This document shows positions 179 through 41,498 of a DNA stretch of 46,753 bases, piece by piece. Position 1 is the stretch's first letter, and every line of letters begins with the position of its first letter. This DNA comes from Desulfonema limicola (GTDB lineage: Bacteria; Desulfobacterota; Desulfobacteria; Desulfobacterales; Desulfosalsimonadaceae): NCBI GenBank assembly GCA_020722245.1, contig DYLE01000001.1, forward strand, positions 1 to 46,753, given 5' to 3'. The position numbers and the translations under genes were made by a program. The notes under the pieces are model-generated. The model made no database searches and was not told the DNA's origin. It saw only the letters and a program-made list of their open reading frames with translations.

Positions 179-2134
<1,956 letters not shown>

Positions 2135-2145
2135 AGGAGTCATCA

Positions 2146-11165: not shown

Positions 11166-11195
11166 TCTTTTAAAAACAGTGTATGGAGGCGGGTC

Positions 11196-12707: not shown

Positions 12708-12748
12708 GAAGATTTCCGGTTAAGGCTTATCGATGGTTCTGAGAGGCC

Positions 12749-15301: not shown

Positions 15302-15313
15302 AGTTTACCCCTT

Positions 15314-15622
15314 CTATACGATGATGACCGAGTTGTCCGTGCCGGGAAATCCGCTGTGTACATACTTATCCGCCATCGGGTCATTGATCCAGGTCTGCTC
15401 GTCGATGAAATACCGAAAGGCGTATTCATGGCCAACGGCAAAGTCAAGGGTTAGAGCAAAGGATCCGTTTTTCTGTTTTTTCATGGGGGTCTCTTTTTGA
15501 TGCCAGTTGTTGAACTCTCCCACCAGGTGAACGGTTTGCGCATCCGGCGCCTCCTCTTTGGAGAGTTTGAAGGTCACCCTGCAAATCCCTTTGGTTTTAA
15601 GGTATTTCTTTTGAATACTCAT
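15314..15622 (-). CDS. Stand-alone CBM48 / AMPK-beta-like glycogen-binding module (102 aa)
   Basis: VTFKLSKEEAPDAQTVHLVGEFNNWHQKETPMKK..GSFALTLDFAVGHEYAFRYFIDEQTWINDP matches the early-set/CBM48 pattern (G.FN.W....M......W........G.Y.YKF.VDG). Confidence 0.8.
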   Translation of the reverse strand: MSIQKKYLKTKGICRVTFKLSKEEAPDAQTVHLVGEFNNWHQKETPMKKQKNGSFALTLDFAVGHEYAFRYFIDEQTWINDPMADKYVHSGFPGTDNSVIIV

Positions 15623-15670
15623 AACTCCTCCTTTTGATGATGAAAAAATGATTCACCCCGAACCGAATCA

Positions 15671-26023: not shown

Positions 26024-26869
26024 CTAAAGATGATCATTCAGCCAGCCCTCCAGATCGGCCAAAACCCGCTGCCGGTGTTCCTCGACCTCGTTGTAGATTT
26101 CATGGTAAAGGCCGTCGTAGACGTGAAGTGTTTTATCCTCAGCTCTGATGCTTTGAAAAAAGGTTTCGGATGTCTTGGCATCCACCAGGCGGTCGTCGCC
26201 CGCAACCTGCATCAGCACGGGGATAGTGATTTTTGAGCCGTGCTGAAGGGTATGGTCCATGGCGGTCATAAATTCGGTGAACCACCGGGCGCTGACCCTG
26301 CGGTGAACCAGGGGATCGGTGTCATACGCCTTCACCACGGATGCGTCATGGCTCAGATGCGAGGAATCCAGCTCATTGTCAAAGGTCAGGCCGGGCCAGA
26401 TGTTCGACATGAGCTTTCCCATGAAGCCCTTGATGACCGGGACCTTCATGGCAGGGGCCAATCCCGGCGAGGAGGCGACGACCCCGTGGATCAGACCCGC
26501 GGATTCCTCGGCAAAGGCCAGGGCCATGAGCCCGCCCATGCTGTGCCCGAGCAAAAGGCATTTCATTTTTTCGGGCGCCCCTTTTTTGGCGATGCGTATC
26601 ATTTGACCGAGGTCGAGAAGGTACTCCTGGAAAGCGTTGATATGGCCGCGCTTTCCGCCGCTTCTGCCGTGCCCCCGGTGATCCAATGCCCAGACCGATA
26701 TGCCCATGCGGATCATCCTTTCCATCACATGGGCGTATCTTCCGGAATGCTCTCCGAGCCCGTGGGCGATCACGATGCGGCCGCGCTCCGGCTCGGCCGG
26801 ACGCTGCCGGTAAAAAATAGTGATCCCGCCATCGCCGGTAAAACTGCCGGTGCGTTCAGATTGATCCAT
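26024..26869 (-). CDS. Alpha/beta hydrolase, lysophospholipase / monoacylglycerol-lipase-like
   Basis: HGLGEHSGRY oxyanion region, nucleophile elbow GHSMGG, later GDDRLVD and YHEI (Asp/His of the triad). Confidence 0.85.
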   Translation of the reverse strand: MDQSERTGSFTGDGGITIFYRQRPAEPERGRIVIAHGLGEHSGRYAHVMERMIRMGISVWALDHRGHGRSGGKRGHINAFQEYLLDLGQMIRIAKKGAPEKMKCLLLGHSMGGLMALAFAEESAGLIHGVVASSPGLAPAMKVPVIKGFMGKLMSNIWPGLTFDNELDSSHLSHDASVVKAYDTDPLVHRRVSARWFTEFMTAMDHTLQHGSKITIPVLMQVAGDDRLVDAKTSETFFQSIRAEDKTLHVYDGLYHEIYNEVEEHRQRVLADLEGWLNDHL

Positions 26870-26900
26870 CCTATGGCCTCCTTGATGATGTTTGTTGATG

Positions 26901-27233
26901 TTAGATGCCGATTTTTGATAAAAACGCGCAGATTTCGTTTACGGTTTGGGTCAGCCGGGGATATGACGCCTCAACCCCCTTCACCGACGATAATAAACCC
27001 TCTATGGATATCTTGATCAGGTTGGGGTTGATCTCGGTTCGGGTGGCTTCATGGGCGGAAATTTTTGTAAAGCCTTTGATGCTTTCCGCTTTTTCTTTCT
27101 GGTTTTTTTGCAGTTCGTTGATTTCATCGTTTAGGGTTTTGAGCAGGGCGATATACTCGGCCTTGTTCAGGTCGGGAATATTCGGAGATGTTTTAATTTT
27201 TTTTTCTATTTTTTCAAGCGTATGGCTTAACAT
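26901..27233 (-). CDS. DUF4404-like small coiled-coil protein
   Basis: 110 aa, helical. The C-terminal YPRLTQTVNEICAFLSKIGI resembles the DUF4404 C-terminal signature (HP.L......L...GI). First gene of the minus-strand operon. Confidence 0.6.
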   Translation of the reverse strand: MLSHTLEKIEKKIKTSPNIPDLNKAEYIALLKTLNDEINELQKNQKEKAESIKGFTKISAHEATRTEINPNLIKISIEGLLSSVKGVEASYPRLTQTVNEICAFLSKIGI

Positions 27234-27346
27234 GTCGATTTCCTTACGCCCAATGATAAAGCCTTATTTATCTACCAGATCGTCGCGTAAAGATCAAATA
27301 TTTATCAATTCAAGGGTAAATTTGGTTTTCAGGCGGTTTGAATGCA

Positions 27347-27375
27347 TTGACGCAGGCCCTTATTCCCGTTATCTT
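27347..27375 (+). promoter_or_regulatory. Sigma70-like promoter candidate TTGACG-N17-TATCTT placed 6 nt before ATG 27382 (predicts a leaderless mRNA)
   Basis: TTGACG at 27347-27352, a 17-nt spacer, TATCTT at 27370-27375. No SD between the -10 and the ATG. Confidence 0.3.
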
Positions 27376-27381
27376 ACACCT

Positions 27382-27681
27382 ATGAATCCCTGTGACGATT
27401 GTCCGATGGATGACAAGGTCTACGAGTGCTGCGGAAGGCATCCTGAAACCGGGGAGAGCGTCCGCCTGGAGATCGACGCAAACACCTTTGTATATGCCTG
27501 TCCGCATCTGGCCCCTTCAGGCAGGTGCGCGGTCTATAATGACCGTCCCCTGGGCTGTCGGGCGCATTATTGCAGTCGGTATGCGGACACTGGAATCGGC
27601 AGGGGATATCTTAATTTTACCGCCCGTTGGGAGGGGTGGCTGGAAAGCGATCCTTCGGACGTATTTTTGAAAAGCGCCTGA
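27382..27681 (+). CDS. YkgJ-family Cys-cluster protein (CxxCxxCC zinc/iron-chelating domain)
   Basis: MNPCDDCPMDDKVYECCG...CPHLAPSGRCAVYNDRPLGCRAHYC matches the family pattern (C.L...G.C.IY..RP..CR.Y). The 26905 start in the ORF track is an antisense extension over the DUF4404 gene. Confidence 0.75.
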   Translation: MNPCDDCPMDDKVYECCGRHPETGESVRLEIDANTFVYACPHLAPSGRCAVYNDRPLGCRAHYCSRYADTGIGRGYLNFTARWEGWLESDPSDVFLKSA

Positions 27682-27711
27682 GGGTTTGCCTCCTCGACTC
27701 CCATCTGTTTT

Positions 27712-29589
27712 TCAGGCATAAAGAAGCCCGGCCAGATCGTTAAGCCCGAGCTGCTCCAGGGTCTCTTTTTTCGGAACCCCGTCCGCATTGAAGCCGCGCA
27801 GCTCGTAGAATTCCTTCAACATCTTGTCCATATCCGGAACGCTCCCCGCCGTGGGTCCGTCTTCAATCGCGGTCATCAGGCGTTTGGGAAGCCGGTCGTC
27901 CTGTGCGCGGGCCCCGAAAAGGTTGGTCAGCCCTCGTTTCATGTACCATACCTTCCGGCCGATCGCCACCACCTCATCGATCGAATAGTCAAACCCGGTG
28001 ACATGGTTTACCATGGCCACCGCCTGGGTGGCGTTTAAGGGAACCGCCCCGAGGTTGCAGAAAAGCGCGCAGCTTGAGAAAAACATGCCGTAATCCTGGC
28101 AGGCGACGTTCAGTTCCGCTCTTTTTTCGCTGCTGAGTTCTTCATACTGGGCAGCGAGCGCTTCGATTTCCGGAATGATCTGGGCTCCGCCTTCCACATT
28201 GAAGTTTAAGCTGGCTTCATGGCAGGCCCCCCGGGGGGATACCCCGTAGGCCAGCCCGTAGCCGTGGGCCCCTCGCGGATCGTGCATCGGCGCCTCAAGC
28301 CCCTTGACGGTGGTCAGAAAATCAGAGGCGTTTTTTCCGATTTTTTTCGCCGCCGCCGCGCTTCCCTCGGCCAGGACCTGTCCGAATCCTTCTTTTTTGC
28401 CGATTTTTTCGCACACGGCCACGATCGCTTCGGAGTTTCCCCAGGTGAGTTTCAGCCCGTCGGTGTCTTTTTCGGTGATCAGACCGTTTTCAAAGCATTC
28501 GATGGCAAAGGCGATGGTGGCGCCGCAGGTGATGGTGTCCATTCCATATCGGTTGCAGAGATCATTGGCCTTGGCGATGGATTCGATGTCGGAATTTAAG
28601 CACATGGTGCCGAAGGTGGCGATGGTCTCATACTCCGGCGACGGCCCTTTTTCGATTTTAAACGGACCCTCCTTGACCTGAGCCTCTTTTTTGCAGGCCA
28701 CGCCGCACCCGTAGCAGGTTTTATGCCCGGCAAAAATTTTTTCCTCGATGGCGCCCGGTCCGATGGCGTCGATGAGCTCCCATTGGTTCATCTGCCAGTT
28801 TTTTATCGGGATGTCTCCGCCCAGAATCCCCACATCGATATGGGCGGGGGTTCCGCTGGAACGGAGGGCGTCGATAAAGATGCTTTCTTCGTATACGGTT
28901 TTAAGCTCTTCTTTCAGTTCTTTCAGCTTGTCGGGATGGGCGATCTCCACCTGTCCGGAGCCCGCGGCATAGATGGCCTTGAGGTTTTTGGACCCCCACA
29001 CCGCCCCCATGCCGGTGCGGCCGGCGGCATGCCCCTTGTTGTTGATGATCGAGGCAAACCGGATCCCTTTTTCTCCGGCCGGTCCGATGCAGATGACCTG
29101 GCCGGGGCCCTTGGCCTCCGGTTTATGATCCTCGAGCATCTGATCGTTGGTGTCATAGGTGTCTTTGCCCCAGTATTTACCGGCGTTCCGGATTTCAACC
29201 TGATCGTCATTGATGAAGATATAAACCGGGGATTTGGCCGCGCCGGTGAGGATGATGCCGTCGTATCCGGCGAATTTCAGGTATGCCCCGAAAAATCCGC
29301 CGGTGTTCGCCTCGCCCCAGAAACCGGTCAGGGGGGATTTCGCACCCATGGTCCACCGGGCAACCGCGTCCATCTTTATTCCCGTCAGTGGGCCGGTCAT
29401 CAGCACAAAGGGATTGGCCGGGGATAATGGATCAAAACCCGGGTTCCCCTTGATCAAATCAAGGTAGATCTGAGTGCCGAACCCCATGCCCCCGATATAG
29501 GTCCTGGCAAAGGACAGATCCAGGGGCTTTTTTTCGATGCTGCCTGAGGTCAGGTCGATATAGAGCATTTTTCCCGCATAGCCGCCCAT
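27712..29589 (-). CDS. Aldehyde:ferredoxin oxidoreductase (tungsten/molybdopterin AOR family)
   Basis: MGGYAGKMLYIDLTSGSIEKKPL...YIGGMGFG N-terminal domain; 4Fe-4S ligands in CYGCGVAC plus RGACHE; 625 aa. Confidence 0.92.
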   Translation of the reverse strand: MGGYAGKMLYIDLTSGSIEKKPLDLSFARTYIGGMGFGTQIYLDLIKGNPGFDPLSPANPFVLMTGPLTGIKMDAVARWTMGAKSPLTGFWGEANTGGFFGAYLKFAGYDGIILTGAAKSPVYIFINDDQVEIRNAGKYWGKDTYDTNDQMLEDHKPEAKGPGQVICIGPAGEKGIRFASIINNKGHAAGRTGMGAVWGSKNLKAIYAAGSGQVEIAHPDKLKELKEELKTVYEESIFIDALRSSGTPAHIDVGILGGDIPIKNWQMNQWELIDAIGPGAIEEKIFAGHKTCYGCGVACKKEAQVKEGPFKIEKGPSPEYETIATFGTMCLNSDIESIAKANDLCNRYGMDTITCGATIAFAIECFENGLITEKDTDGLKLTWGNSEAIVAVCEKIGKKEGFGQVLAEGSAAAAKKIGKNASDFLTTVKGLEAPMHDPRGAHGYGLAYGVSPRGACHEASLNFNVEGGAQIIPEIEALAAQYEELSSEKRAELNVACQDYGMFFSSCALFCNLGAVPLNATQAVAMVNHVTGFDYSIDEVVAIGRKVWYMKRGLTNLFGARAQDDRLPKRLMTAIEDGPTAGSVPDMDKMLKEFYELRGFNADGVPKKETLEQLGLNDLAGLLYA

Positions 29590-29601
29590 GGTGCAAGCCT
29601 C

Positions 29602-30015
29602 CTAGTAAACATTGTATTGGCTGTAGCCGTGTTCCTCCAGGTACTTGGGATACATCTCATAGGTGGGTTTGATGGCCGGAAGCAGCTTTAATATTTTCGG
29701 AATGGGGCCTTTTGCGATCATCTGTTTTCGGGTCAGGGCCATGGTCAGGTTGACCTTGCCGAACCAGAATTTATGGGCGATATCCGCATTCATGGACATC
29801 TCGACGATCGCCTTTGTTTCGGTATCGCGGGGCCTGATATCGATCTTGTCCCCGGAGCAATCCACCACGAGGACCAGGTCCGGATCGGTATAGGAAAACC
29901 GGATGATCAGTTTGGATTCAAGCAGCTTGTTCGCCACCTCCGGGGTGTCGGCCACCAGTTTAAAAAACCCGACCAATACCTCTTCGAATTTTTCCGAACT
30001 CTCAAATAATCCCAT
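29602..30015 (-). CDS. Stand-alone SCP2 sterol/lipid-carrier domain protein
   Basis: 137 aa. Contains ...MSMNADIAHKFWFGKVNLTMALTRKQMIAKGPIPKILKLLP, typical of the SCP2 fold. Confidence 0.8.
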   Translation of the reverse strand: MGLFESSEKFEEVLVGFFKLVADTPEVANKLLESKLIIRFSYTDPDLVLVVDCSGDKIDIRPRDTETKAIVEMSMNADIAHKFWFGKVNLTMALTRKQMIAKGPIPKILKLLPAIKPTYEMYPKYLEEHGYSQYNVY

Positions 30016-30051
30016 GATTTCCTCCTTATGATTGAACGTTAGGTTGATTGG

Positions 30052-31233
30052 CTAATACGCTTTCTGGATATAGGGGAGGAGTGCCTCGGGATCCACCTCC
30101 CGTGGGTTGTAGAAGGATGTCCCGTCGTTTAAGGCGCCTTCCGCGATGGCGGCAAGTCCGTCCTCAGGCACGCCCACATCCCTCAACCGCAAGGGGAGGG
30201 CGCCCAGCCGGTTTAGTTTTTCCCTGAGCTTATATACCGCGTCAATGGCCTTTCGGGCGGCGTCTTCTTCAGATAGTCCGGCGGTGTGTTCGCCCATCAC
30301 CGGGGCCAGGCGGGCGAGTCTGGTCTTGATTTGTTCAAAGTTGTACTCCATGCCGTAGGGAAGATAAATGGCGTTGGCGATGCCATGAGGCACACGGAAC
30401 AGCCCGCCGGTGGCGTGGGCCATGCCGTGGACACAGCCCACCATGGAATGGGTGAAGGCAACGCCGGCCATGGTTGAGGCGATGAGCATGGCGCCTCTGG
30501 CTTCGATGTCCTCTCCGTTTTCCGTGGCTCTGGGCAGGTGGTTTACAATCAGCTCGATGGCGCCCAAGGCAAACGCATCGGATATGGGGCTGGCCTGAAT
30601 GCCGACATAGGCCTCCAGGGCATGGGTTAAGGCATCCATGCCGGTGCCCGCGGTCATGTTCGGCGGAAGGGAGACCGTCATTTCCGGATCGAGCACAGCC
30701 AGGTTCGGGAGCAGAAATTTATCCGGAAAGGCCAGCTTCTCTTTGTTCTCTTCGTCATAGATGACGGCCACCATGGTCACCTCGCTGCCGGTGCCGGCGG
30801 TGGTCGGAATCACGATATGGGGTTTGAGCGGCCGGGTCAGGGTGTGGGCGCCCGAGTAGTCCTCAACCAGGTCTCCGCCTTCCGAGAAAAGGATGTTCGA
30901 GGCCTTTGCGGTGTCGATCACGCTGCCGCCGCCGATGGAGATGATCCCTTGGGCGCCGGAGTCCTTGATCTGGCCGGCGCAGGTCTTGACGTCGTTGAGC
31001 CGGCCGTCCTGGGCCACATCCAGAAACTCCCCGGTGACCTCGCATCCGGCTTCCGCAAGCCCGTCCGCGACCTTTTTGACCAGACCCAGGTCGCTGATGA
31101 TGCGGTCGGAAACGATGAAGTATTTTTTGATGCCGATGATATCCAGCTCAGGTTTCAGGCTTGTTGCAATACCGATCTGATAAACGACCTTGGTGGGATT
31201 GTAGAACTCAAAAAATTCAGGCAAGGGGAACAT
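30052..31233 (-). CDS. Iron-containing (group III) alcohol dehydrogenase
   Basis: GGGSVIDTAK motif and His-rich metal site (HALEAY, HSMVGCVHGMAH). ATG 31233 is preferred because AAGGAG lies 6 nt upstream. The ORF-track start 31356 adds 41 implausible residues. Confidence 0.9.
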   Translation of the reverse strand: MFPLPEFFEFYNPTKVVYQIGIATSLKPELDIIGIKKYFIVSDRIISDLGLVKKVADGLAEAGCEVTGEFLDVAQDGRLNDVKTCAGQIKDSGAQGIISIGGGSVIDTAKASNILFSEGGDLVEDYSGAHTLTRPLKPHIVIPTTAGTGSEVTMVAVIYDEENKEKLAFPDKFLLPNLAVLDPEMTVSLPPNMTAGTGMDALTHALEAYVGIQASPISDAFALGAIELIVNHLPRATENGEDIEARGAMLIASTMAGVAFTHSMVGCVHGMAHATGGLFRVPHGIANAIYLPYGMEYNFEQIKTRLARLAPVMGEHTAGLSEEDAARKAIDAVYKLREKLNRLGALPLRLRDVGVPEDGLAAIAEGALNDGTSFYNPREVDPEALLPYIQKAY

Positions 31234-31434
31234 GGCAGACTCCTTAACTTTGGGGGTTAGAAGATTCAGTCCGTCAACCAGCAATATTTTTAGCACAGGG
31301 ATGATCTTTTCGTCAACAGAATAAATGCAACGCCTGCGATTTACATAAAATTGCACGGGTTTTGAAATAATGACAAAAAAGAGACAAAAATTTGACGGCG
31401 ATGTGAAGGATGGGCTGAAACAGTGATCAATGAA

Positions 31435-31485: not shown

Positions 31486-32697
31486 TTACCCCTTGTATTT
31501 GCCGATGATGGCGACGCTGCAGATGTTCTGGAACGGAAACCCGCCCAGGTTGTGGGTCAGACCCAGCCTTGGGTTTTCGATCTGGCGTTTACCCGCCCGT
31601 CCATGAAGCTGCAGGTACATCTCGTAGAGCATCCGCAGCCCGGACGCGCCGATGGGGTGCCCGAAGCATTTGAGGCCGCCGTCGAGCTGGCAGGGGACCC
31701 CGCCGCCATGCAGATCATAAAAGCCGTTCATGATGTCCTCTCTGGCTTTTCCCCTTTCCGAGATATGCAGGTCCTCGTAGGTGACGAATTCCGTGATGGA
31801 AAAACAGTCATGGACCTCCATCATGCTGATTTCTTTTCTGGGGTTTTCAATGCCGGCCTCCTTATACGCCATGGTGCTGCATTTGGAGGTGGTCAGAAAA
31901 TGGTCGCAGTCCCAGTCGTTGTAAGCCATTTCTTCACCGCTGCTCAAAACAATCTGGAGGGCCTTGACCGATACAAAATCTTTTTTACCCATTTTTTTTG
32001 CGATTTCCGGGGTCGTGACAATCGCGCAGGCGGAGCCGTCGCTGACCCCGCAGCAGTCAAACAGACCAAGGGGATGGGCGATGATGGGGGCCGCAAGGAT
32101 TTGATCCTCGGTCACCGCTTTCTGAAGGTGCGCCTTGGGGTTCAAGGTGCCGTTGGCATGGCTTTTGGCCGAAACATGCGCCATGGCCCGTTTCAGGTCT
32201 TCAGGCTTGATTTTATACTTTGCGGCATATGCGCTGGCGAGCTGGGCAAAGGATCCCGGAGCGGTCAGGTTCGGCCACCACTGCCAGATAAGGGTGCCGG
32301 CGTTTGAACCTGCCCCAGGCAGTCCGCCGTAGCCGGTATCTTTCAGTTTTTCCACCCCCAGCGCCAGGCAGACATCATAGGCGCCTGAGGCCACCGCATA
32401 ACAGGCGCCTCGGAACGCCTCGGTTCCGCTGGCGCAATAGTTTTCCACACGGGTGACCGGAATCATGGGAAGATGCAGGGTGACGGACAGGGGCATGGCG
32501 GTTTTCCCCACATTGACCTCATCCATGCAGGTACCGAACCATGCGGCTTGAATATCCTTTTGCTCGATTCCGGCATCCGCCAGGCATTCCTCATACGCCT
32601 CGAGCATCAGTTCTTCAGCCCCCACGTCCCAGCGTTCTCCGAACTTGGTGCATCCCATCCCGATGATGGCGACCTTATCTTTTATTCCTGTAGCCAT
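31486..32697 (-). CDS. Thiolase, SCPx/archaeal-type (non-fused), catalytic residues intact
   Basis: VENYCASGTEAF (nucleophile Cys), EVHDCF (His), GGLKCFGHPIGASG (second Cys, GHP). Confidence 0.9.
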   Translation of the reverse strand: MATGIKDKVAIIGMGCTKFGERWDVGAEELMLEAYEECLADAGIEQKDIQAAWFGTCMDEVNVGKTAMPLSVTLHLPMIPVTRVENYCASGTEAFRGACYAVASGAYDVCLALGVEKLKDTGYGGLPGAGSNAGTLIWQWWPNLTAPGSFAQLASAYAAKYKIKPEDLKRAMAHVSAKSHANGTLNPKAHLQKAVTEDQILAAPIIAHPLGLFDCCGVSDGSACAIVTTPEIAKKMGKKDFVSVKALQIVLSSGEEMAYNDWDCDHFLTTSKCSTMAYKEAGIENPRKEISMMEVHDCFSITEFVTYEDLHISERGKAREDIMNGFYDLHGGGVPCQLDGGLKCFGHPIGASGLRMLYEMYLQLHGRAGKRQIENPRLGLTHNLGGFPFQNICSVAIIGKYKG

Positions 32698-32736
32698 GTT
32701 TTTTTCCTCCTCTTTATGGATGGCAGTCTATGCGGG

Positions 32737-35469
32737 TTAAATTTTAAACAGTTTTCCGATAAGCTGGGATTTCATGACATCCCCCTCGATTTTGAGCTTT
32801 CCGGATGTAAAGGCCTTCATGGGATCCAGCTTTCCGGAAACCATATCCAGAAAATCGGCTTCGGCCATGTTCAAGGTGCAGGTGGGCTTGTCCGCCTTGC
32901 CGGCCTCCACCGTGCACTTGGCGTCCGCAACCTTCACCACCCAGCTGCCGCCGCCGCTTCCGGATATATGATACTGGAAGGTGACGTCCACTCCCGCCGC
33001 GGCAGATGCGTTAAAGGCGGTCGGCATTTTATCAAAGACCTCCTTGACGGTGACTCCGGCAGAGGGCTTTGAGCCGGCCTCTTCTTTTTTCGCGCCACTT
33101 TCTTTGGGCGTCAGCAGGTCAAAGAGCGCTGAATTGAGATCCGTAAACTCCTTGGCGCCCTCCATGGCGCTGATTTTATCGATGTTCTCGTCGATCTGTT
33201 CGGGGGTCGGCGGGTTCTGCGCGTCTCCGAGCTGAACCCCGGCGCTGGTGAGCACCGCGGCCCTGTTGAAGTAGCCCATGCCGGCGTTGAAGATTTTTCC
33301 GGTTTCCGTGCAGTTATCGCTGCACAGATACAACACCATGGGGGCGACGAACTCCGGTTTCATTTTTACGAATATCTCCGGCGGCATGATGTCCTCGGTG
33401 AGCCGGGATCCGGCCAGGGGCGCGATGGTGTTGACCTTGATGTCATACTTCGCCCCTTCCAGCTTTAAGGTGTTCATGAACCCGACCAGGGCCATTTTCG
33501 CCGAGGAGTAGTTGGTTTGTCCGAAATTGCCGTAGAGCCCGGCCGCGGAGGTGGTCATGATGATGCGGCCGAACCCGTTATCCCGCATGACCTTGAAGGC
33601 GGGCTTTGTCACGTTATAGGCGCCGTTTAAATGCACCGCCAGAACCGCCGCCCAGTTTTCCGGTTCCATCTTGACAAAGCTTTTGTCTCTTAGAATGCCG
33701 GCGTTGTTGATCAGGATGTCCACCCGGCCGAAGGCATCCAGGGCGGTTTTTACGATGGCCTCACCGCCTTCGGGGGTGGCGACGTTGTCGTAGCTGGCCA
33801 CGGCCTTGCCGCCCAGATCCTGGATTTCTTTTACGACCTTGTCCGCCGGGGAGCTGGAGCCTGCGCCGGTGCCGTCCCTGGCGCCGCCCAGATCATTGAC
33901 CACCACCGATGCCCCCCGTTTGGCAAGTTCCAGGGCGTAGACCCGTCCGAGACCGCCTCCGGCCCCGGTCACAATGGCCACACGGCCGTCAAACCGGATT
34001 TTTTTCATTTCCTCCGCAGCCCCGGGAATCGGCGCGGCTTTCCAGAAATAGTTGACAAAGCCGCGTTCCTCGTCTTCGTTGCGTTTTCGAAATACCATCT
34101 GTACCGGAAGCCCGACCTTTAACTCCTCCAAGGTGCAGTCCGTAAAGTCGGCCATAAACCGGCCGCCGCCTTCAAACTGAATCATTCCGTATTTATGGGG
34201 CGGCTCAACGGAAACCGCCAGCATGTCTCCGGTAAAGGTTTTAACCTTTGCCGGAATATCCGCGAACTCGTAGTCATCCTGACTGTGCCGGGCGGTGCAC
34301 GCGGGATTGACGCAGACGTCGGTTTTGGGAAACTGCGGCGTTCCACAGACCCGGCATTTGCCGCCCACAAGCCCCAGCAGCATCTTACGCCGTCTCCACA
34401 GGGTCGTCAACGCGGTCTGGGTTTCCGCCTCGGCCCGGATCCCCATTTCCGGATGAAGGAGGTCCCTGAATTTAAGGAATTTGAGGTAATTGTCCGTGGT
34501 TTCCTTATGCTCCAGGGTGCGTTTGAATTTGTTGCGTTCAGGCATCTTGGCGATGTTTGGGGTGACCTCGAAAAGAAACGCGCTGCATCCCTGGCCGAAG
34601 CTGGCCATGACGATCTTATCGCCGGGTTTGGCCTCGTCTAATGCCGCGGTCATCATCAACAGGGGATGGGCGGTACCGGTCTCACCGCAGACCTCATGCA
34701 GGTTGTCGATCACCTTGTCCGGCGAGGCGCCGAGCTTTTTGGCGATGTTTTTGTGCTCCGCCTTGAAGAAACACGGATACACCAGTTTATTGACATCCTG
34801 GATGGTGATATTGAGCTTTTTGAAAAGGCCGTTCACCGCCTCAGGAATGATCTTGGCGTATCCTTCATCCCGGACCCAGCGTTCCTCCCAGGTGTAGTCG
34901 TATTTTTTGAAGGCGCCCCGGTAGTGGTCCACAAAATCATAGGAAACCGAGTAGGACCCCTTGTATTCGGCGATGACATTGGTATCGCCGATCATAAACG
35001 AGGCGGCCCCATCGCCGAACCACATCTCATAAAAATAGGCCGGCTTGGTTTCCCTCTTGTCCGAGGCGGTTACCAGAACGCTTTTTCGTTCCCCTCCTTT
35101 AACCGATTCGAGAGCGCTCAAAAGCGCGTTGGTCCCCGCTTTCTGGGAAGATGTAAAGTCAGAGGTGACGATATCGCTTCTGAGATTCAAGGCGGTGGAG
35201 ACGATCCCGGCGTTCTGACGGTCCGCAAACGGCAGGGTGGTGGAGGCGAGAAACAGGCCGTCGATTTTCTTTTTGTCCATGCCCTTCAAACAATCCCGGG
35301 AGGCCGCCACCGCCATGGTGACGGCGTCTTCGTCCCAGTAGCACATGGAGCGTTCACCCTGGGCCACCATGATCACCGCAGGGGCGAACCATCCGATGCT
35401 CTGGAATATCGACATACGGTTGAGTCTCAAGCGGGGGATATAGGCGCCGTAAGATGTGATTCCAATCAT
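32737..35469 (-). CDS. 910-aa four-domain fusion: HMG-CoA-synthase-like (thiolase-fold) domain, DUF35 Zn-ribbon/OB-fold, MFE-2-type SDR dehydrogenase, SCP2
   Basis: aa 1-345 are HMGCS-like (GITSYGAYIPRLRL, WDEDAVTMA). aa 372-391 are the ribbon CRVCGTPQFPKTDVCVNPAC, followed by the OB part. aa 491-745 carry TGAGGGLGR and YSSAK. The C-terminus is SGKLKIEGDVMKSQLIGKLFKI (SCP2). Confidence 0.88.
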   Translation of the reverse strand: MIGITSYGAYIPRLRLNRMSIFQSIGWFAPAVIMVAQGERSMCYWDEDAVTMAVAASRDCLKGMDKKKIDGLFLASTTLPFADRQNAGIVSTALNLRSDIVTSDFTSSQKAGTNALLSALESVKGGERKSVLVTASDKRETKPAYFYEMWFGDGAASFMIGDTNVIAEYKGSYSVSYDFVDHYRGAFKKYDYTWEERWVRDEGYAKIIPEAVNGLFKKLNITIQDVNKLVYPCFFKAEHKNIAKKLGASPDKVIDNLHEVCGETGTAHPLLMMTAALDEAKPGDKIVMASFGQGCSAFLFEVTPNIAKMPERNKFKRTLEHKETTDNYLKFLKFRDLLHPEMGIRAEAETQTALTTLWRRRKMLLGLVGGKCRVCGTPQFPKTDVCVNPACTARHSQDDYEFADIPAKVKTFTGDMLAVSVEPPHKYGMIQFEGGGRFMADFTDCTLEELKVGLPVQMVFRKRNEDEERGFVNYFWKAAPIPGAAEEMKKIRFDGRVAIVTGAGGGLGRVYALELAKRGASVVVNDLGGARDGTGAGSSSPADKVVKEIQDLGGKAVASYDNVATPEGGEAIVKTALDAFGRVDILINNAGILRDKSFVKMEPENWAAVLAVHLNGAYNVTKPAFKVMRDNGFGRIIMTTSAAGLYGNFGQTNYSSAKMALVGFMNTLKLEGAKYDIKVNTIAPLAGSRLTEDIMPPEIFVKMKPEFVAPMVLYLCSDNCTETGKIFNAGMGYFNRAAVLTSAGVQLGDAQNPPTPEQIDENIDKISAMEGAKEFTDLNSALFDLLTPKESGAKKEEAGSKPSAGVTVKEVFDKMPTAFNASAAAGVDVTFQYHISGSGGGSWVVKVADAKCTVEAGKADKPTCTLNMAEADFLDMVSGKLDPMKAFTSGKLKIEGDVMKSQLIGKLFKI

Positions 35470-35521: not shown

Positions 35522-37633
35522 TCATAGCTTAAACAGTTTTCCAATAAGCTGGGATTTCATGACATCCCCTTCGATTTTCAGCTTTCCGGAGGTATAGGCC
35601 TGCATGGCGGGGAGCACCCCGTTGATCATATCCAGAAAATCCTTGTCCGCCATTTTCAGGGTGCAGGTCGGCTTGCTATGCACCCCGGGCTCGATCGTGC
35701 AGGATCCGTCCTTGACGCTGCAGTGCCAGTCCCCGCCGTTGGCCCCCGAGATATGATATTGGAAGACCACGTCTACACCCTTGGCGGCCTCCGGGTTAAA
35801 CGCCGCCGGCATGGCCTTGAACACATCGGCGGTGGAGGTCAGTTTGGCGCCGGCCTCAGCCTGGGGCTTTGCCGGTGCGCTAAAGGCGTTCATGACGTCC
35901 CCCACCTGTTCGTTTAATTCAAAATACAACTTTCCACCCTTCAACGAAGCAACCTTGTCGAACCGGCCGACCACATCTTCCACGGAGGGCGGGTTGACGC
36001 CGTCCCCGATAACCACCCCGGGTCCGGTGATGACCGCGGCCCGGTTGAAGAATCCCATACCGGCGTTATAAATATTCCCGTTGACCTTGCATTTTTCAGA
36101 ACAGAGGTATAGCACCATGGGGGAGACGAATTCCGGCTTCATCTTTTCAAAAAGCTCGGGCGGCATCACGTCCTCGGTCAGGCGGGAGGCCGCGATGGGG
36201 GCGATGGTGTTGACCTTGATGTCGTACTTGGCCCCCTCCAGTTTGAGGGTGTTCATGAAACCCACCAGGCCCATCTTGGCGGAGGAGTAGTTGGTCTGGC
36301 CGAAATTGCCGTAGAGCCCGGCCGCAGAGGTCGTCATGAGGATCCGGCCGTAGCCGTTTTCCCGCATCACCTTGAAAGCGGGGCGGGTCACGTTATACGC
36401 GCCGTTCAGATGAACGTTCAAGACCGCCTGCCAGTTTTCAGGCTCCATTTTCAGAAAACTCTTATCGCGAAGGATCCCCGCGTTGTTGATCAGAATATCG
36501 ACCTTTCCGAATGCGTCTATGGCGGTTTTTACGATGGCCTCACCGCCTTCCGGGGTGGCGACGTTGTCGTAGCTGGCGACCGCCTCCCCGCCCAGCGCCT
36601 TGATCTCTTCCACCACCTTGTCCGCCGGACCCTTGTCCTTGCCGGATCCGTCCCGGGTTCCGCCCAGGTCATTGACCACCACCTTTGCGCCCCGCCTGGC
36701 CAGGTCGAGGGCATAGATCCTTCCGAGGCCGCCTCCGGCGCCGGTGACAATGGCCACCCGTCCGTCAAAACGGATTTCATCCTTGGGCATGTCGCCGTAT
36801 TCAAACAGTCCGTTGGTGATGACCTCCTCACCGGTTTTGGCATTGATGGTTTTCCAGAGGACCTTTCCCTCCTCGATCTTCCAGATCTGCGTCTTGATGG
36901 GGTCGCCGGGATACAGCGGTTTGGAGAACCGGCATTTCAACCGTCTGACCTTTTCCGGCGCTCCGGGAGTCAGGTTTTGCATCAGCGCCCGGCAGGCATA
37001 CCCGTAGGTGCACAGACCGTGCATGATCGGTTTTTCAAAACCCGCCATTTTGGCAAAATCCTGGTCCACGTGAAGGGCGAAGAGATCGCCGGACAACCGG
37101 TAAAGCAGGGGCTGGTTCTGATTGGGATGGGCCTCCACCTCGAAATCCGGCTTTTTTTTCGGAAATTCTAATGTGTCCTTTGGGGCCGCTTCACCGCCGA
37201 ATCCGCCGTCCAGCCGGGCAAAAATGGTCAGCACACTGGTGAAGAGTTTTTTACCGTTCGCATCAAAGGTGTCGCTTTCACCGATGACCAGGGCTCCTTT
37301 CCCCTTTCCCTTGTCGTACATGTGGGTGATTTTTCCTGCGGTGACCAGCTTCCCCTCGGTGGGAATCGGCCGGTGAAAGATCAGATCCTGTTCCCCGTGC
37401 AGGATACCGGCCAGGTTGACGTTGGCGTTGATTCCGATATGGGTCAGAAATTCAAAGATCGAGGCGATGGAAAACGTCGGAATCACCTTCAGGTTTTTCT
37501 CGTAGGTAAACTCGGGTTCTGAATAGCCGGCGCCGATCCCCAGGGCATACAGGATAACATCCTTCCAGGTGTAGTCCTTGGAGATGGGTCCGATGGGTTT
37601 TCCTACCGCGTCAAGGTTAAGCGCCATGTTCAT
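35522..37633 (-). CDS. 703-aa fusion: MaoC-type (R)-specific enoyl-CoA hydratase 2 (double hot-dog), MFE-2-type SDR dehydrogenase, SCP2
   Basis: aa 1-286 carry YRLSGDLFALHVDQDFAKMAGFEKPIMHGLCTYG (hydratase-2 motif variant). aa 287-540 carry TGAGGGLGR and YSSAK. The C-terminal SCP2 ends KLKIEGDVMKSQLIGKLFKL. Confidence 0.9.
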   Translation of the reverse strand: MNMALNLDAVGKPIGPISKDYTWKDVILYALGIGAGYSEPEFTYEKNLKVIPTFSIASIFEFLTHIGINANVNLAGILHGEQDLIFHRPIPTEGKLVTAGKITHMYDKGKGKGALVIGESDTFDANGKKLFTSVLTIFARLDGGFGGEAAPKDTLEFPKKKPDFEVEAHPNQNQPLLYRLSGDLFALHVDQDFAKMAGFEKPIMHGLCTYGYACRALMQNLTPGAPEKVRRLKCRFSKPLYPGDPIKTQIWKIEEGKVLWKTINAKTGEEVITNGLFEYGDMPKDEIRFDGRVAIVTGAGGGLGRIYALDLARRGAKVVVNDLGGTRDGSGKDKGPADKVVEEIKALGGEAVASYDNVATPEGGEAIVKTAIDAFGKVDILINNAGILRDKSFLKMEPENWQAVLNVHLNGAYNVTRPAFKVMRENGYGRILMTTSAAGLYGNFGQTNYSSAKMGLVGFMNTLKLEGAKYDIKVNTIAPIAASRLTEDVMPPELFEKMKPEFVSPMVLYLCSEKCKVNGNIYNAGMGFFNRAAVITGPGVVIGDGVNPPSVEDVVGRFDKVASLKGGKLYFELNEQVGDVMNAFSAPAKPQAEAGAKLTSTADVFKAMPAAFNPEAAKGVDVVFQYHISGANGGDWHCSVKDGSCTIEPGVHSKPTCTLKMADKDFLDMINGVLPAMQAYTSGKLKIEGDVMKSQLIGKLFKL

Positions 37634-37849
37634 TCCTCCTTACTGATATGGGTGAAAGGTTTTGTGGAAAAACAGGTTCGGCATCGTGCGGTGATAAGGT
37701 CCAAAGGCTGTTTATTCATAAGATTAATGTCGGTTGCGGAATATTCTAGTCAATTTATTCCAACAAATGATGGGGAAACTATAAGGCCTTTTTTTCCTCA
37801 TGTCAAAAGTTTTTTTTATTTTTTGCGCCGGCCTTGTCAAAAATCCTTG

Positions 37850-37878
37850 TTGACTTGAAAAGGGTAAATCATTAAAGT
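37850..37878 (+). promoter_or_regulatory. Sigma70-like promoter candidate TTGACT-N17-TAAAGT upstream of the acyl-CoA ligase gene
   Basis: TTGACT at 37850-37855, a 17-nt spacer, TAAAGT at 37873-37878. The perfect 10-bp palindrome caatcgattg at 37901-37910 lies in the predicted leader. Confidence 0.3.
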
Positions 37879-37976
37879 GAGATCAATCAAATGATGGAAA
37901 CAATCGATTGAGGAAATCCGCGCCGTCGTTTTAACCCGATCACCCATGCAGAAGAAAAATCCGGCGGAGTTTACAC

Positions 37977-39677
37977 ATGACAAGCTATGCCCAACGACCC
38001 TGGCTGAAGCACTACGATCCCTGGGTCAGCGGCGAGATTGATGTTCCGAACAAGACCTATACGGATCTTCTGGAAGAGGGGCTTTCCTTTGCGCCCCAGC
38101 GGCCGGCCGTCTATTTTTTCGGAAAAACCATCACCTTTTCAGAGCTGGATGGGCTTTCCGCCCGGTTTGCCGAGTTTTTGACATCCCGCGGCTATGGCCC
38201 CGGCGATGTGGTCGGCATTCACCTGGTCAATATTCCCCAGTACCTCATCGTCCTGGCAGGGAGCCTGCGCGCCGGGTGTGCGGTGTCCGGTGTATCCTTT
38301 CTGCTGACCGCAAACGAAATGGCCCATCAGCTCAACGACTCGGGCGCAAGCCTGCTCGTGACCACGGATGCAAGCTTTGAGGAGAAGCTTTTTGCCATCA
38401 GCGACCGGCTTTCCGGCCTTAAGGATATCGTGGTCACCAACCTCGGTGATTTTTTGCCTCCTGTAAAAAGGCTTCTGGGGAGAATGTTAAAAAAGATACC
38501 TTCCGGAAAGGTTCTTCCGATGCCCGGCAAACAGGTTTTTCATCTTAATCGATTACTCCCTCTTTATTCGGGACGGTTTGAAAAGCCGAAGCTCACGCCC
38601 GAGGATGTCTGTTTGATTCAATATACCGGCGGAACCACCGGGCTTCCCAAGGGAACCCTTCTGACCCATCGGAACATCGTCGCCAATGTGACCCAGGCCC
38701 GGCAATGGACGGACCTAAAGCCTGAAGCTCATGATATCGGCCTGTCTGCGTTTCCTTTTTTTCATCTGGCCGGGCTGATGCTGGGGATGATGGCCTTGAG
38801 TTCTTCCGCGACCCAGTGCCTGATTCCGGATCCCAGGGACACAGGGCATATCTGCAAGCAGCTTCAAAAATACCATCCGACCCTGCTGGCCAATGTACCG
38901 ACCCTTTATCAGATGCTGCTTGCCGAGCCGGGGTTTCATCGCCTGGATTTTTCCGCATGCCGGCTTTGCATCTCCGGGGCCGCCCCCTTTGCCGAGGAGG
39001 CCATCACGGCGCTCGAGTCGGTGGTGGGGAAGGGGAAGGTGATGGAGGTCTATGGAATGACGGAAACCAGCCCCCTCCTCACCATGAACCCGTTCTCCGG
39101 TAAAAAAAAGATCGGCACGGTGGGGATCCCCATTCAAAGCACGCAGGTGAAGCTGGTGGACCTTGAGACCGGCACCCGGGAGGTGCCTGTGGGGGAGGCC
39201 GGAGAGCTGATCGCCCGCGGGCCCCAGGTTATGGCCGGGTATAAGGACAAGCCCGCGGAGACCGACCACGCCCTTCGGGAGTTTGAGGGGGAAAAATGGC
39301 TCTACACCGGGGACGTGGCGGTGATGGACGAGGACGGGTACTTCACCATTGTGGACCGGACCAAGGATATGGTCAACGTAGGGGGGTACAAGGTGTTTTC
39401 GCGGGAGGTGGAGGAGGTGCTCTACCAGCACAAGCAGATCGCCTTCTGCGCCGTTATCGGCAGGCCGAACCCCGGGCGTCCCGGAAGCGAACGGGTCGTC
39501 GCCGTTATTCAACCGGCCGGGGATTTTCAAAAGCTGGATAAACCCCGATTAGAAAAAGAAATTCTGGATTTCTGCCGCAAAACCCTGGCCCCTTACAAGG
39601 TTCCCCGGGTGGTGGAGTTTGTCGAATCCATACCGCTTACCAGCGTCGGCAAGGTGGATAAAAAGGCGCTTCGCTGA
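37977..39677 (+). CDS. AMP-dependent (long/medium-chain or branched) fatty-acid-CoA ligase
   Basis: YTGGTTGLPKG, GYKDKP..T, and the C-terminal PLTSVGKVDKK (A10 Lys within a P-x4-G-K context). Confidence 0.9.
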   Translation: MTSYAQRPWLKHYDPWVSGEIDVPNKTYTDLLEEGLSFAPQRPAVYFFGKTITFSELDGLSARFAEFLTSRGYGPGDVVGIHLVNIPQYLIVLAGSLRAGCAVSGVSFLLTANEMAHQLNDSGASLLVTTDASFEEKLFAISDRLSGLKDIVVTNLGDFLPPVKRLLGRMLKKIPSGKVLPMPGKQVFHLNRLLPLYSGRFEKPKLTPEDVCLIQYTGGTTGLPKGTLLTHRNIVANVTQARQWTDLKPEAHDIGLSAFPFFHLAGLMLGMMALSSSATQCLIPDPRDTGHICKQLQKYHPTLLANVPTLYQMLLAEPGFHRLDFSACRLCISGAAPFAEEAITALESVVGKGKVMEVYGMTETSPLLTMNPFSGKKKIGTVGIPIQSTQVKLVDLETGTREVPVGEAGELIARGPQVMAGYKDKPAETDHALREFEGEKWLYTGDVAVMDEDGYFTIVDRTKDMVNVGGYKVFSREVEEVLYQHKQIAFCAVIGRPNPGRPGSERVVAVIQPAGDFQKLDKPRLEKEILDFCRKTLAPYKVPRVVEFVESIPLTSVGKVDKKALR

Positions 39678-39707
39678 ACCTCATTGATATCGCCAGTGGG
39701 AGGAAAC

Positions 39708-40853
39708 ATGTTGAAAGCAGGAGCTTTAAGCGGAATCACCGTTGTAGACATCTCCCGGCTGCTGCCGGGTCCGTTTTGCACCATGATCCTGGCGGACCAC
39801 GGCGCGCGGGTGATCGCCATTGAGGACCGGCGCTATGCCGCGGAAGCCGGCGCGACCTTTACGGTGCTGCGCAACAAGTCGCACATGACCCTGAACCTGA
39901 AAACAGAGGCCGGCCGCGCCATTTTTTTTGATCTGATCAAAAGAGCCGATGTGATTGTGGAGGGGTTTCGGCCCGGGGTCGCCGGTCGGTTGGGGGTGGA
40001 TTACGAATCCGTGTCCGCAGTGAATTCAAGGATCATCTACTGCTCCATCACCGGCTACGGGCAGAACGGACCCTGCCGGGAGGTGGCCGGCCATGACGTG
40101 AACTATTTAAGCGTCGCCGGTGTTCTGGATCTGATCGGCGAAAAGAACCGCCCTCCGTCCATTCCGGGGATTCAGATCGCGGATCTGACCGGCGGCATGA
40201 ACGCGGTGATCGGGATTCTTCTGGCCCTTTATGCGCGGGAAAAAACCGGAAAAGGGCAGTACATCGATATCTCCATGACCGACGGCAGCCTGAGCCTGAT
40301 GCCGCTGGCCCTGAGCTTTCGGCAGATCACCGGTTCGCCGGTTACGCGTTCGGATTCCATCCTGTCCCATAGGTATGCCTGCTACAACACCTATGAGACC
40401 GCCGATAAACGCTACCTCTCCATCGGCGCCGTGGAAAACCGGTTCTGGAAAAACCTGTGTGAATACTTTGGTGTTCCGGAGTATACCCCTTTGCAGTATG
40501 ATGATTCCCGAAGGGAGGAGATCATCGACTTTTACAGGCGAAAAATCAGGGAAAAAACCCTGGCCCAGTGGGAGAAGGAGTTCTCCCCCCTGGATATCTG
40601 CTGGGGGTCGGTGCGGACCCTGGAAGAGGCCTTGGAATCCTCGCTGTTTCAGGAAAGGGGGATGGTCGTGGAACTGAAAGAAAAAGACGGCCGCAGGTCC
40701 AGGGTGCTGGGAATCCCGGTCAAGCTGAGCCGTACCCCGGGGTCGGTGCGCACGCCTCCGCCGGGTTTCGGTGAGGATACCCATGACATCCTGCGCGAGC
40801 TGGGGTATACGGATGAAAAAATTCGCGACCTCTTCGATCAAGGGGTGGTCTGA
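39708..40853 (+). CDS. Family III CoA-transferase fold, alpha-methylacyl-CoA racemase-like
   Basis: VVDISRLLPGPFCT, AGHDVNYLSVAGVL (compare racemase GHDINYLALSGVL), IQIADLTGG (Asp). ATG 39708 is preferred because GGAGG is 5 nt upstream. Confidence 0.85.
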   Translation: MLKAGALSGITVVDISRLLPGPFCTMILADHGARVIAIEDRRYAAEAGATFTVLRNKSHMTLNLKTEAGRAIFFDLIKRADVIVEGFRPGVAGRLGVDYESVSAVNSRIIYCSITGYGQNGPCREVAGHDVNYLSVAGVLDLIGEKNRPPSIPGIQIADLTGGMNAVIGILLALYAREKTGKGQYIDISMTDGSLSLMPLALSFRQITGSPVTRSDSILSHRYACYNTYETADKRYLSIGAVENRFWKNLCEYFGVPEYTPLQYDDSRREEIIDFYRRKIREKTLAQWEKEFSPLDICWGSVRTLEEALESSLFQERGMVVELKEKDGRRSRVLGIPVKLSRTPGSVRTPPPGFGEDTHDILRELGYTDEKIRDLFDQGVV

Positions 40854-40880: not shown

Positions 40881-41498
40881 ATGACGTCATCACTTGAAAA
40901 GGCAAAACAGAATCCGGATTCCATGAAGGCAAGGATACTGACCGCGGCGCGCCGGATTTTCGGAGAATACGGTTTTCACGGCACCACCACGCGCATGATC
41001 GCCAAGGCGGTGGACATCGACATCTCCACCCTCTATTACCACTGGGGGGAAAAGGGGGACCTCTATGAGGCGGTGATCTGTGATATCAACGAAGGGCTTC
41101 GACAGAAGCTGATCGAGGTGGAGAAAATGATCAAGGGGCGTCCCCTGGCCGAGCGGATTGAGATCGCGGTGGAAGAGATGGCGGATTATTTGTTTGCAAA
41201 CCCGGAGATATCCAACCTTACCCTTTTTCGATATTTCACCAAGACCCGGCATAAAAGCCTGCTGGATTTCAGGGTGCCGGAATTCATCTCCGACATCGCC
41301 TATTCCATGGGGCTGTCCACGGACCGCAAGAACGTTCCGGTGGACGCGAAGATGAAGGTGTTATCCATCATGAACGCCATTCATAACTTTGTTTCCGGTG
41401 AGAATTTTTTCCGGCCCATGCTGAAACTGGACCGGGAAAGCTATATCAAGGAGGCCAAGGAAACCTTAAAGTTTTTCAACCTCTCCGCCTTTACCTAA
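40881..41498 (+). CDS. TetR/AcrR family transcriptional regulator
   Basis: N-terminal HTH ARILTAARRIFGEYGFHGTTTRMIAKAVDIDISTLYYHWG. Confidence 0.9.
   Translation: MTSSLEKAKQNPDSMKARILTAARRIFGEYGFHGTTTRMIAKAVDIDISTLYYHWGEKGDLYEAVICDINEGLRQKLIEVEKMIKGRPLAERIEIAVEEMADYLFANPEISNLTLFRYFTKTRHKSLLDFRVPEFISDIAYSMGLSTDRKNVPVDAKMKVLSIMNAIHNFVSGENFFRPMLKLDRESYIKEAKETLKFFNLSAFT

Follow-up and report, generated by a model that had tools for sequence, protein, structure and literature searches.

A four-domain protein with HMG-CoA-synthase-like, DUF35, dehydrogenase and SCP2 domains, encoded beside an intact thiolase in Desulfonema limicola, as a probable component of an (R)-specific β-oxidation module

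The locus described here lies on Desulfonema limicola contig DYLE01000001.1 (GCA_020722245.1), of which positions 1–46,753 were analysed (the window, 46,753 nucleotides; all coordinates are in window numbering). At its centre is a 910-residue fusion protein of four domains: a 3-hydroxy-3-methylglutaryl-CoA (HMG-CoA) synthase (HMGS)-like domain, a DUF35 module, a short-chain dehydrogenase/reductase (SDR) of the MFE-2 type and an SCP2 lipid-carrier domain. Its gene stands between those of a 703-residue MFE-2-like protein and a thiolase (Table 1). The thiolase is the downstream gene, its ATG separated from the fusion stop codon by 39 nt, and strong AGAGGAG(G) Shine–Dalgarno sites precede both the fusion and the thiolase genes. 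The open reading frames (ORFs), their coordinates and this spacing are as given in an initial annotation of the stretch, and its four domain calls proved correct in Pfam, NCBIfam, sequence searches of the PDB, and AlphaFold2 (AF2) models compared using Foldseek. We propose below that the three proteins probably carry out the last three steps of a peroxisome-like β-oxidation cycle.

The N-terminal half of the fusion protein is related to HMGS and has lost the catalytic residues of that enzyme. Residues 1–338 align end to end with the NCBIfam model of archaeal-type HMG-CoA synthase (NF003274), at 206 bits and below the 244-bit cutoff, and Pfam places ACP_syn_III_C at residues 218–296, in agreement with the HMGS- or KAS-III-like fold assigned to this domain at the outset. 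The DUF35 assignment likewise stands: Pfam OB_ChsH2_C matches at 419–461, zf-ChsH2 (the DUF35 zinc ribbon) aligns at 367–391 with 19.4 bits, under its 23.2-bit cutoff, and PDB sequence matches to this part include the archaeal DUF35 protein 6esq_E (5e-13) and PhlB (3e-4). Searched as a whole, residues 1–487 match PhlA (4e-35), the archaeal HMGS 6esq_I (2e-26) and MucA (4e-20). An AF2 model of the same residues, built with 60 homologues, has a predicted local distance difference test (pLDDT) score of 90.3 and a predicted template modelling (pTM) score of 0.92. Its best Foldseek matches are PhlA, 6esq_I/6et9_I (TM score 0.90–0.92 on the target) and MucA, so that the top matches are the HMGS-like subunits of three solved thiolase/HMGS/DUF35 complexes (TM score 0.85–0.92 on the target). 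The proposed kinship to the archaeal complex is thus real at the level of both sequence and fold.

The catalytic Glu, Cys, His and Asn of 6ESQ_I align with T77, Q109, P232 and E263 of the fusion protein, and none of 125 representatives of the fused family (0/125) has a Cys in the Q109 column. Because all four catalytic residues are lost, the HMGS-like domain is predicted to be a scaffold or pseudo-enzyme and not an enzyme, as had been suspected. Many of its positions are invariant across 40 and 60 homologues, indicating strong constraint, and such conservation of a dead domain would fit a structural role. In the DUF35 module, the four zinc-ribbon cysteines are ~90% conserved among the 125 representatives.

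A linker of ~10 residues connects the HMGS-like/DUF35 half to the SDR, in which Pfam recognizes adh_short at 496–684 (1e-42); the SCP2 match follows at 823–909. Across 40 homologues there is no variation in the Gly-rich NAD site, the NNAG motif or S641, Y654 and K658. Aligned with the rat MFE-2 dehydrogenase, the SDR shows 54% identity over 281 residues, the C-terminal extension of MFE-2 included, and yeast MFE-2 (2ET6), with two SDR units, matches in two stretches. The domain has the look of an active (3R)-hydroxyacyl-CoA dehydrogenase of the MFE-2, or peroxisomal, type, with predicted activity and stereospecificity, and its initial description as a 3-hydroxyacyl-CoA dehydrogenase-type SDR is upheld. 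An identity of 54% to a rat peroxisomal protein (window 32737–34008) is unusually high for a bacterium–eukaryote pair, and this likeness may bear on the origin of the peroxisomal β-oxidation enzymes. The SCP2 domain reaches a pLDDT of 84–90 within a model of the full-length protein.

The thiolase had been called intact, and this is confirmed. It scores 701 bits against NCBIfam NF004810 (cutoff 403), keeps the catalytic motifs C88-A-S, H296-D-C-F and G-H347-P, and matches the thiolase of the archaeal complex, 6ESQ_A, at 1e-49. Two other assignments were rejected: an aldolase of the Ltp2 type, as the protein retains its catalytic Cys, and the benzoylsuccinyl-CoA thiolase BbsAB, as its score against the BbsB model NF053628 is 143 bits, with a cutoff of 750.

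Table 1 Features of the locus, with coordinates in the window and the evidence or residues that define them.
Feature	Position	Strand	Remarks
703-aa MFE-2-like protein	35522–37633	−	hydratase-2 (MFE-2_hydrat-2_N + MaoC), SDR, SCP2; first gene of the operon
Fusion protein ORF	32737–35469	−	910 aa; four domains: HMGS-like, DUF35, MFE-2-type SDR, SCP2
HMG-CoA-synthase/KAS-III-like domain, residues 1–338	34456–35469	−	predicted catalytically dead: T77, Q109, P232, E263
DUF35 module, residues ~357–481	34027–34401	−	C4 zinc ribbon C372/C375/C386/C391 and OB fold
MFE-2-type (3R)-hydroxyacyl-CoA dehydrogenase (SDR), residues ~491–775	33145–33999	−	TGxGGGxG, NNAG, S641, Y654, K658 intact
SCP2 sterol/lipid-carrier domain, residues ~805–910	32740–33057	−	PF02036, 6e-20; preceded by a low-complexity linker
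SCP2-type (archaeal/SCPx-like) thiolase	31486–32697	−	403 aa; C88, HDCF (296–299), GHP (346–348) intact
Candidate sigma-70-like promoter TTGACA-17-TATAGT	37778–37806	−	precedes the 703-aa gene; assigned solely by its 11/12 match to the consensus
Long-chain-fatty-acid-CoA-ligase-like AMP-binding enzyme	37977–39677	+	divergently transcribed; Pfam, NCBIfam
Family-III CoA-transferase fold protein, nearest alpha-methylacyl-CoA racemase	39684–40853	+	Pfam, PDB sequence similarity
TetR-family regulator	40881–41498	+	
Fe-alcohol dehydrogenase	30052–31356	−	Pfam; downstream of the thiolase, same strand
Stand-alone SCP2, 137 aa	29602–30015	−	Pfam; downstream of the thiolase, same strand
Aldehyde:ferredoxin oxidoreductase	27712–29589	−	Pfam; downstream of the thiolase, same strand

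The four-domain architecture recorded in the initial annotation stands and is not rare. Full-length proteins of this kind (908–919 aa, at least 69% identical) form more than 120 clusters at 90% identity, almost all from metagenome-assembled genomes (MAGs) of Desulfobacterales/Thermodesulfobacteriota, where they are annotated merely as 'SDR family oxidoreductase'; all of them fit one 50% cluster (representative P0121). The SDR–SCP2 extension is therefore common in Desulfobacterales. A genome scan yielded 80 loci, the closest of which belongs to an uncultured Desulfonema MAG (92% identity); of cultured strains, the set contains Desulfosarcina widdelii PP31 (locus L051) alone. When 50%-identity representatives were searched exhaustively with residues 1–487, 3,129 relatives were returned, and nearly all of the best 150 of these have two domains (465–495 aa).

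The relatives form a series of architectures: the scaffold alone (~481–490 aa, 50–73% identical to the N-terminal half of the window protein), the scaffold with an SDR (~787–812 aa; Desulfobacterales, Syntrophales and Chloroflexota), with SCP2 (~600–614 aa; Desulfobacterales), with two SCP2 domains (722 aa), and with both SDR and SCP2 (~910 aa, the window form). Judged by these compositions, the repeated fusion of the scaffold to SDR, SCP2, two SCP2 domains or SDR plus SCP2 is a Rosetta-stone pattern predicted to tie the scaffold to these functions. Scaffold variants with an SDR alone, one SCP2 or two SCP2 domains include P0122, P0129, P0298, P0378, P0392 and P0399. Most are from Desulfobacterales, Syntrophales and Chloroflexota; P0129, drawn from an unannotated library of representatives, has three domains and a high G+C content.

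Gene order around the extended proteins is nearly always TetR, hydratase-2–SDR–SCP2, fusion, thiolase. The thiolase gene is immediately 3′ of the fusion in 66 of the 68 loci with room for it, and the hydratase-2–SDR–SCP2 gene immediately 5′ in 62 of 63. Of 58 related loci, 43 have a TetR gene no more than 4.5 kb from the fusion, and a CoA_transf_3 gene is present in 27 of the 38 loci with long flanks. Acyl-CoA dehydrogenase (ACAD) and racemase-like genes are often found near the extended fusion in related loci. Three-domain loci (Desulfobacterales, Syntrophales and Chloroflexota) run TetR or PadR, in some cases ACADs, MFE-2-like, fusion, thiolase, ACAD and CoA_transf_3, an operon that by its predicted products is a complete β-oxidation set. 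Two-domain loci consist of the scaffold–thiolase pair, sometimes with NMO and CoA_transf_3. In locus L002, the gap between the thiolase and Fe-alcohol dehydrogenase genes holds, by ORF listing alone, only ORFs of 262 and 115 aa, too short for an ACAD. In L051, the thiolase gene is separated from the racemase-like gene by ~1.1 kb (13998–15150) holding two ORFs with no Pfam match; the same position is occupied by an ACAD gene in L082 and L085. Downstream, L051 encodes a FadH-like Oxidored_FMN/Pyr_redox_2 protein that may be a 2,4-dienoyl-CoA reductase.

The CoA_transf_3 protein of the window (39684–40853) is closest to alpha-methylacyl-CoA racemase (MCR/AMACR; MCR 1X74, 8e-57) and reaches the cutoff of no NCBIfam model. 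His126 and Asp156, which we take to be the catalytic pair of Mycobacterium tuberculosis MCR, are conserved at the aligned positions. The protein is predicted to be racemase-like.

The locus carries two copies of the SDR, one on the fusion protein and one on the 703-residue protein (36000–36770), which are 83% identical as proteins and 80% identical as DNA (766 nt). Identity within such pairs reaches 95% in L084 (Chloroflexota) and L085 (Syntrophales). Across loci L001–L085, there are 384 locus pairs, out of 2,278, in which both intra-genome paralogue pairs are closer than either orthologue pair, and a neighbour-joining tree does not recover the fusion-borne SDRs as monophyletic. These observations point to repeated gene conversion between neighbouring paralogous SDR domains across lineages. 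Such conversion would fit a pairing of the two SDRs, but could equally well have a neutral cause.

Much of this arrangement has relatives among characterized systems. By genome mining, Liao et al. (Nat Commun 2026; PMC12960953) collected 1,030 loci in which bacteria keep HMGS, ACAT and DUF35 genes together, 1,001 of them without secondary-metabolism genes, and they characterized the ACAT/HMGS–DUF35 complex of Pseudomonas fluorescens. There, HMGS and DUF35 are fused, the E-C-H-N tetrad is absent and the thiolase Cys, HDxF and GHx motifs are intact; the complex cleaves acetoacetyl-CoA and does not make HMG-CoA, performing thiolysis without condensation, and its authors assign it no defined pathway and term it an 'evolutionary intermediate'. 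As early as 2010, Krishna et al. (PMC2954200) had listed proteins in which DUF35 is joined to thiolase-superfamily, SDR-like, SCP2 and hot-dog domains. The initial annotation had described a bacterial, fused and extended version of the archaeal complex, and the bacterial, fused part of this is not new: a bacterial fused dead HMGS–DUF35 protein with a thiolase has been known since the 2026 study, and the core idea is no longer new. The window locus belongs to the same ACAT/HMGS–DUF35 family, with which it shares the single HMGS-like–DUF35 polypeptide, the lost tetrad, the adjacent intact SCP2-type thiolase and a context free of polyketide synthase (PKS) and non-ribosomal peptide synthetase (NRPS) genes. 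What it adds to the P. fluorescens complex is the C-terminal MFE-2-type SDR and SCP2, in a β-oxidation operon. This uncharacterized SDR–SCP2 extension is the new part; no characterized four-domain example was found in the literature, and the initial annotation likewise knew of none.

The archaeal thiolase/HMGS/DUF35 complex shares the three homologous folds, including the Cys4 zinc ribbon and OB fold of its DUF35 protein; there, however, HMGS is active, the proteins are separate and the pathway is mevalonate synthesis, whereas in the window HMGS is dead and fused, in a catabolic context. PhlACB (5M3K, 5MG5) and MucABC (9VBO, 9VBT) contain an HMGS-like subunit without the catalytic Cys, which is the best sequence and fold match to the N-terminal domain of the window protein, but their thiolase-like subunit lacks HDxF and acylates small molecules, and the subunits are separate products of biosynthetic gene clusters.

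There is precedent, too, for the recruitment of neighbouring pathway enzymes by DUF35 to a partner with the thiolase fold. Schmerling et al. (bioRxiv 10.1101/2024.07.05.601840) showed for Sulfolobus acidocaldarius that an SDR and a MaoC dehydratase are bound by a ketothiolase/DUF35 pair. The DUF35–thiolase, SDR and MaoC folds of this 'archaeal FAS complex' are those of the window operon; it differs in consisting of separate, non-covalently bound proteins, in having neither an HMGS-like subunit nor SCP2, and in its proposed biosynthetic direction. In Shy, a MaoC–DUF35 protein, the DUF35 domain is reported to copurify with Sal, an aldolase of the thiolase fold (PMC11321319). The steroid systems ChsH1–ChsH2(DUF35)/Ltp2 and Shy/Sal resemble the window in that a DUF35 module fused to the preceding pathway enzyme docks that enzyme onto a thiolase-fold protein, and differ in having a Cys-less aldolase as partner and a fused hydratase, whereas the window has a true thiolase and a fused dehydrogenase. 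The eukaryotic peroxisomal MFE-2/SCPx/AMACR system shares the closely related SDR, hydratase-2, the SCP2 domains, an SCP2-type thiolase and the racemase-like gene. Its domains are distributed differently (SDR–hydratase–SCP2 and thiolase–SCP2, compared with hydratase–SDR–SCP2, scaffold–SDR–SCP2 and a free thiolase in the window), and it has no HMGS-like/DUF35 scaffold.

We consider it probable, though well short of assured, that the locus encodes an (R)-specific, peroxisome-like β-oxidation module in which a dehydrogenase is tethered to the thiolase on a dead-HMGS/DUF35 platform. The 703-residue protein, the fusion protein and the thiolase would catalyse the last three steps of the cycle. The dead HMGS-like domain and DUF35 would form a non-catalytic docking platform that binds and stabilizes the adjacent thiolase, by analogy with the P. 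fluorescens, archaeal, Phl and Muc complexes. The tethered SDR would make 3-oxoacyl-CoA beside the thiolase that cleaves it, and SCP2 would carry the hydrophobic acyl tail near that enzyme. Hydratase-2 and a second, paralogous SDR–SCP2 would be supplied by the 703-residue protein, whose SDR may pair with that of the fusion, drawing the hydratase into the same particle. The substrates are likely to be long-chain and/or 2-methyl-branched acyl-CoAs: a racemase-like gene, a long-chain CoA ligase gene and a TetR regulator gene are adjacent, and this lineage adds an alcohol dehydrogenase, an aldehyde oxidoreductase and a further SCP2. Peroxisomes degrade 2-methyl-branched acyl-CoAs by a route that uses MFE-2, SCPx and AMACR. 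Together, the racemase-like gene, a hydratase and dehydrogenase resembling MFE-2, the thiolase of SCP2 type and the SCP2 domains mirror that route. The observations behind this reading are the domain identities, the loss of the HMGS residues, the intact thiolase and SDR residues and the near-invariant gene order; from them we infer physical association, channelling, SDR heterodimerization, flux direction and substrate.

Several points weigh against it. An AF2 model of the full-length protein, built with 40 close homologues, has a pLDDT of 63.8 and a pTM of 0.41 and shows no confident packing of the SDR or SCP2 on the scaffold. There is no ACAD gene in the window's own cluster. Domain content does not settle the direction of flux, because the same combination of thiolase/DUF35, SDR and MaoC forms a biosynthetic complex in Sulfolobus. 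The racemase label rests on similarity and two residues, and SUGCT-type transferases score only ~27 bits lower. Finally, the literature on sulfate reducers and other anaerobes yielded no proteomic, transcriptomic or genetic data on the module, which a Desulfococcus multivorans proteogenomics paper leaves unmentioned.

The lack of confident packing between domains in the AF2 model also speaks for co-location without channelling, in which the dead HMGS/DUF35 half only chaperones and stabilizes the thiolase and the SDR–SCP2 half acts as an independent β-oxidation enzyme, the fusion fixing stoichiometry and co-expression. Two-domain relatives work with a thiolase without any fused SDR, and the scaffold is not the sole carrier of the SDR, as the neighbouring 703-residue protein has one as well. 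We nevertheless regard this explanation as rather unlikely: the SDR and/or SCP2 have been kept on the scaffold, with a short linker, across Desulfobacterales, Syntrophales and Chloroflexota, and DUF35 modules elsewhere tether the preceding pathway enzyme to thiolase-fold partners (10.1101/2024.07.05.601840 and, as reported, PMC11321319). A biosynthetic complex running β-oxidation in reverse, as in Sulfolobus, would have the same enzyme folds and (R)-stereochemistry as that of S. acidocaldarius, and the thiolase, SDR and hydratase reactions are all reversible. It is improbable, however, as the cluster holds no enoyl-CoA reductase, the operons of relatives contain ACADs, the ligase-like, TetR and racemase-like genes suit catabolism, and the characterized bacterial homologue performs thiolysis and not condensation (PMC12960953).

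The two remaining alternatives stem from the N-terminal domain. Its best sequence and fold match is PhlA, which likewise has no catalytic Cys, as would be expected of a Friedel–Crafts C-acyltransferase that, like PhlACB and MucABC, modifies a small-molecule acceptor. The thiolase, on the other hand, retains HDxF, which is needed for thiolysis and has been lost in PhlC and MucB (PMC12960953); it scores 173 bits to the archaeal thiolase compared with 71–80 bits to PhlC, and no PKS or NRPS genes occur near the locus among the window ORFs scanned, making an acyltransferase very improbable. The end-to-end similarity to NF003274 might suggest a genuine HMG-CoA synthase, but none of the four catalytic residues is retained, the match falls short of the model's cutoff, and mutation of the E-C-H-N tetrad abolishes HMG-CoA formation in the archaeal enzyme (PMC12960953). 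The scanned window ORFs also include no mevalonate genes. Because the catalytic tetrad is lost, we treat this possibility as excluded to near certainty.

An extension of the preferred β-oxidation reading makes the four-domain protein the hub of a metabolon, with the thiolase docked, the SDRs heterodimerized and SCP2 handing over the acyl tail. We put this forward tentatively and lean towards doubting it. If true, a single particle would hydrate, oxidize and thiolytically cleave long or 2-methyl-branched (isoprenoid-type) acyl-CoAs, giving an anaerobe a structural alternative to the trifunctional enzyme FadBA, and the ~1,000 'orphan' bacterial HMGS/ACAT/DUF35 loci would gain a physiological role. 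The fusion and its operon, for their part, are direct genomic evidence pointing to β-oxidation as the role of at least this branch of the family. A real complex would also represent a new way of assembling a multifunctional β-oxidation enzyme, relevant to the turnover of lipid and branched-chain (for example, isoprenoid-derived) carbon by sulfate reducers in anoxic sediments.

The genes flanking the module vary more among relatives. Those for Fe-alcohol dehydrogenase and aldehyde:ferredoxin oxidoreductase occur together in only 10 of the 38 long-flanked loci, each of these 10 being closely related to the window, and in the closest-relative loci listed the stand-alone SCP2 gene sits between them. 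An alpha/beta hydrolase (Hydrolase_4) is encoded further down the minus strand, past an opposite-strand ORF (block 26024–31356). The presence of these dehydrogenase, SCP2, oxidoreductase and hydrolase genes suggests that this lineage feeds lipid alcohols or esters into the module.

The divergent intergenic region (37634–37976) contains, besides the near-consensus promoter, imperfect palindromes at 37868–37895 and 37883–37911, which could be TetR operators. Elsewhere in the window, a second acyl-CoA cluster on the plus strand (179–3710) encodes an acetyl-CoA-synthetase-like AMP-binding protein followed by a DUF6125 protein and an enoyl-CoA hydratase. An unrelated glycogen block on the minus strand (9129–19981) encodes a branching enzyme, a starch-synthase-like glycosyltransferase, a DUF3417/phosphorylase protein and a 1,436-residue debranching-enzyme-like protein.

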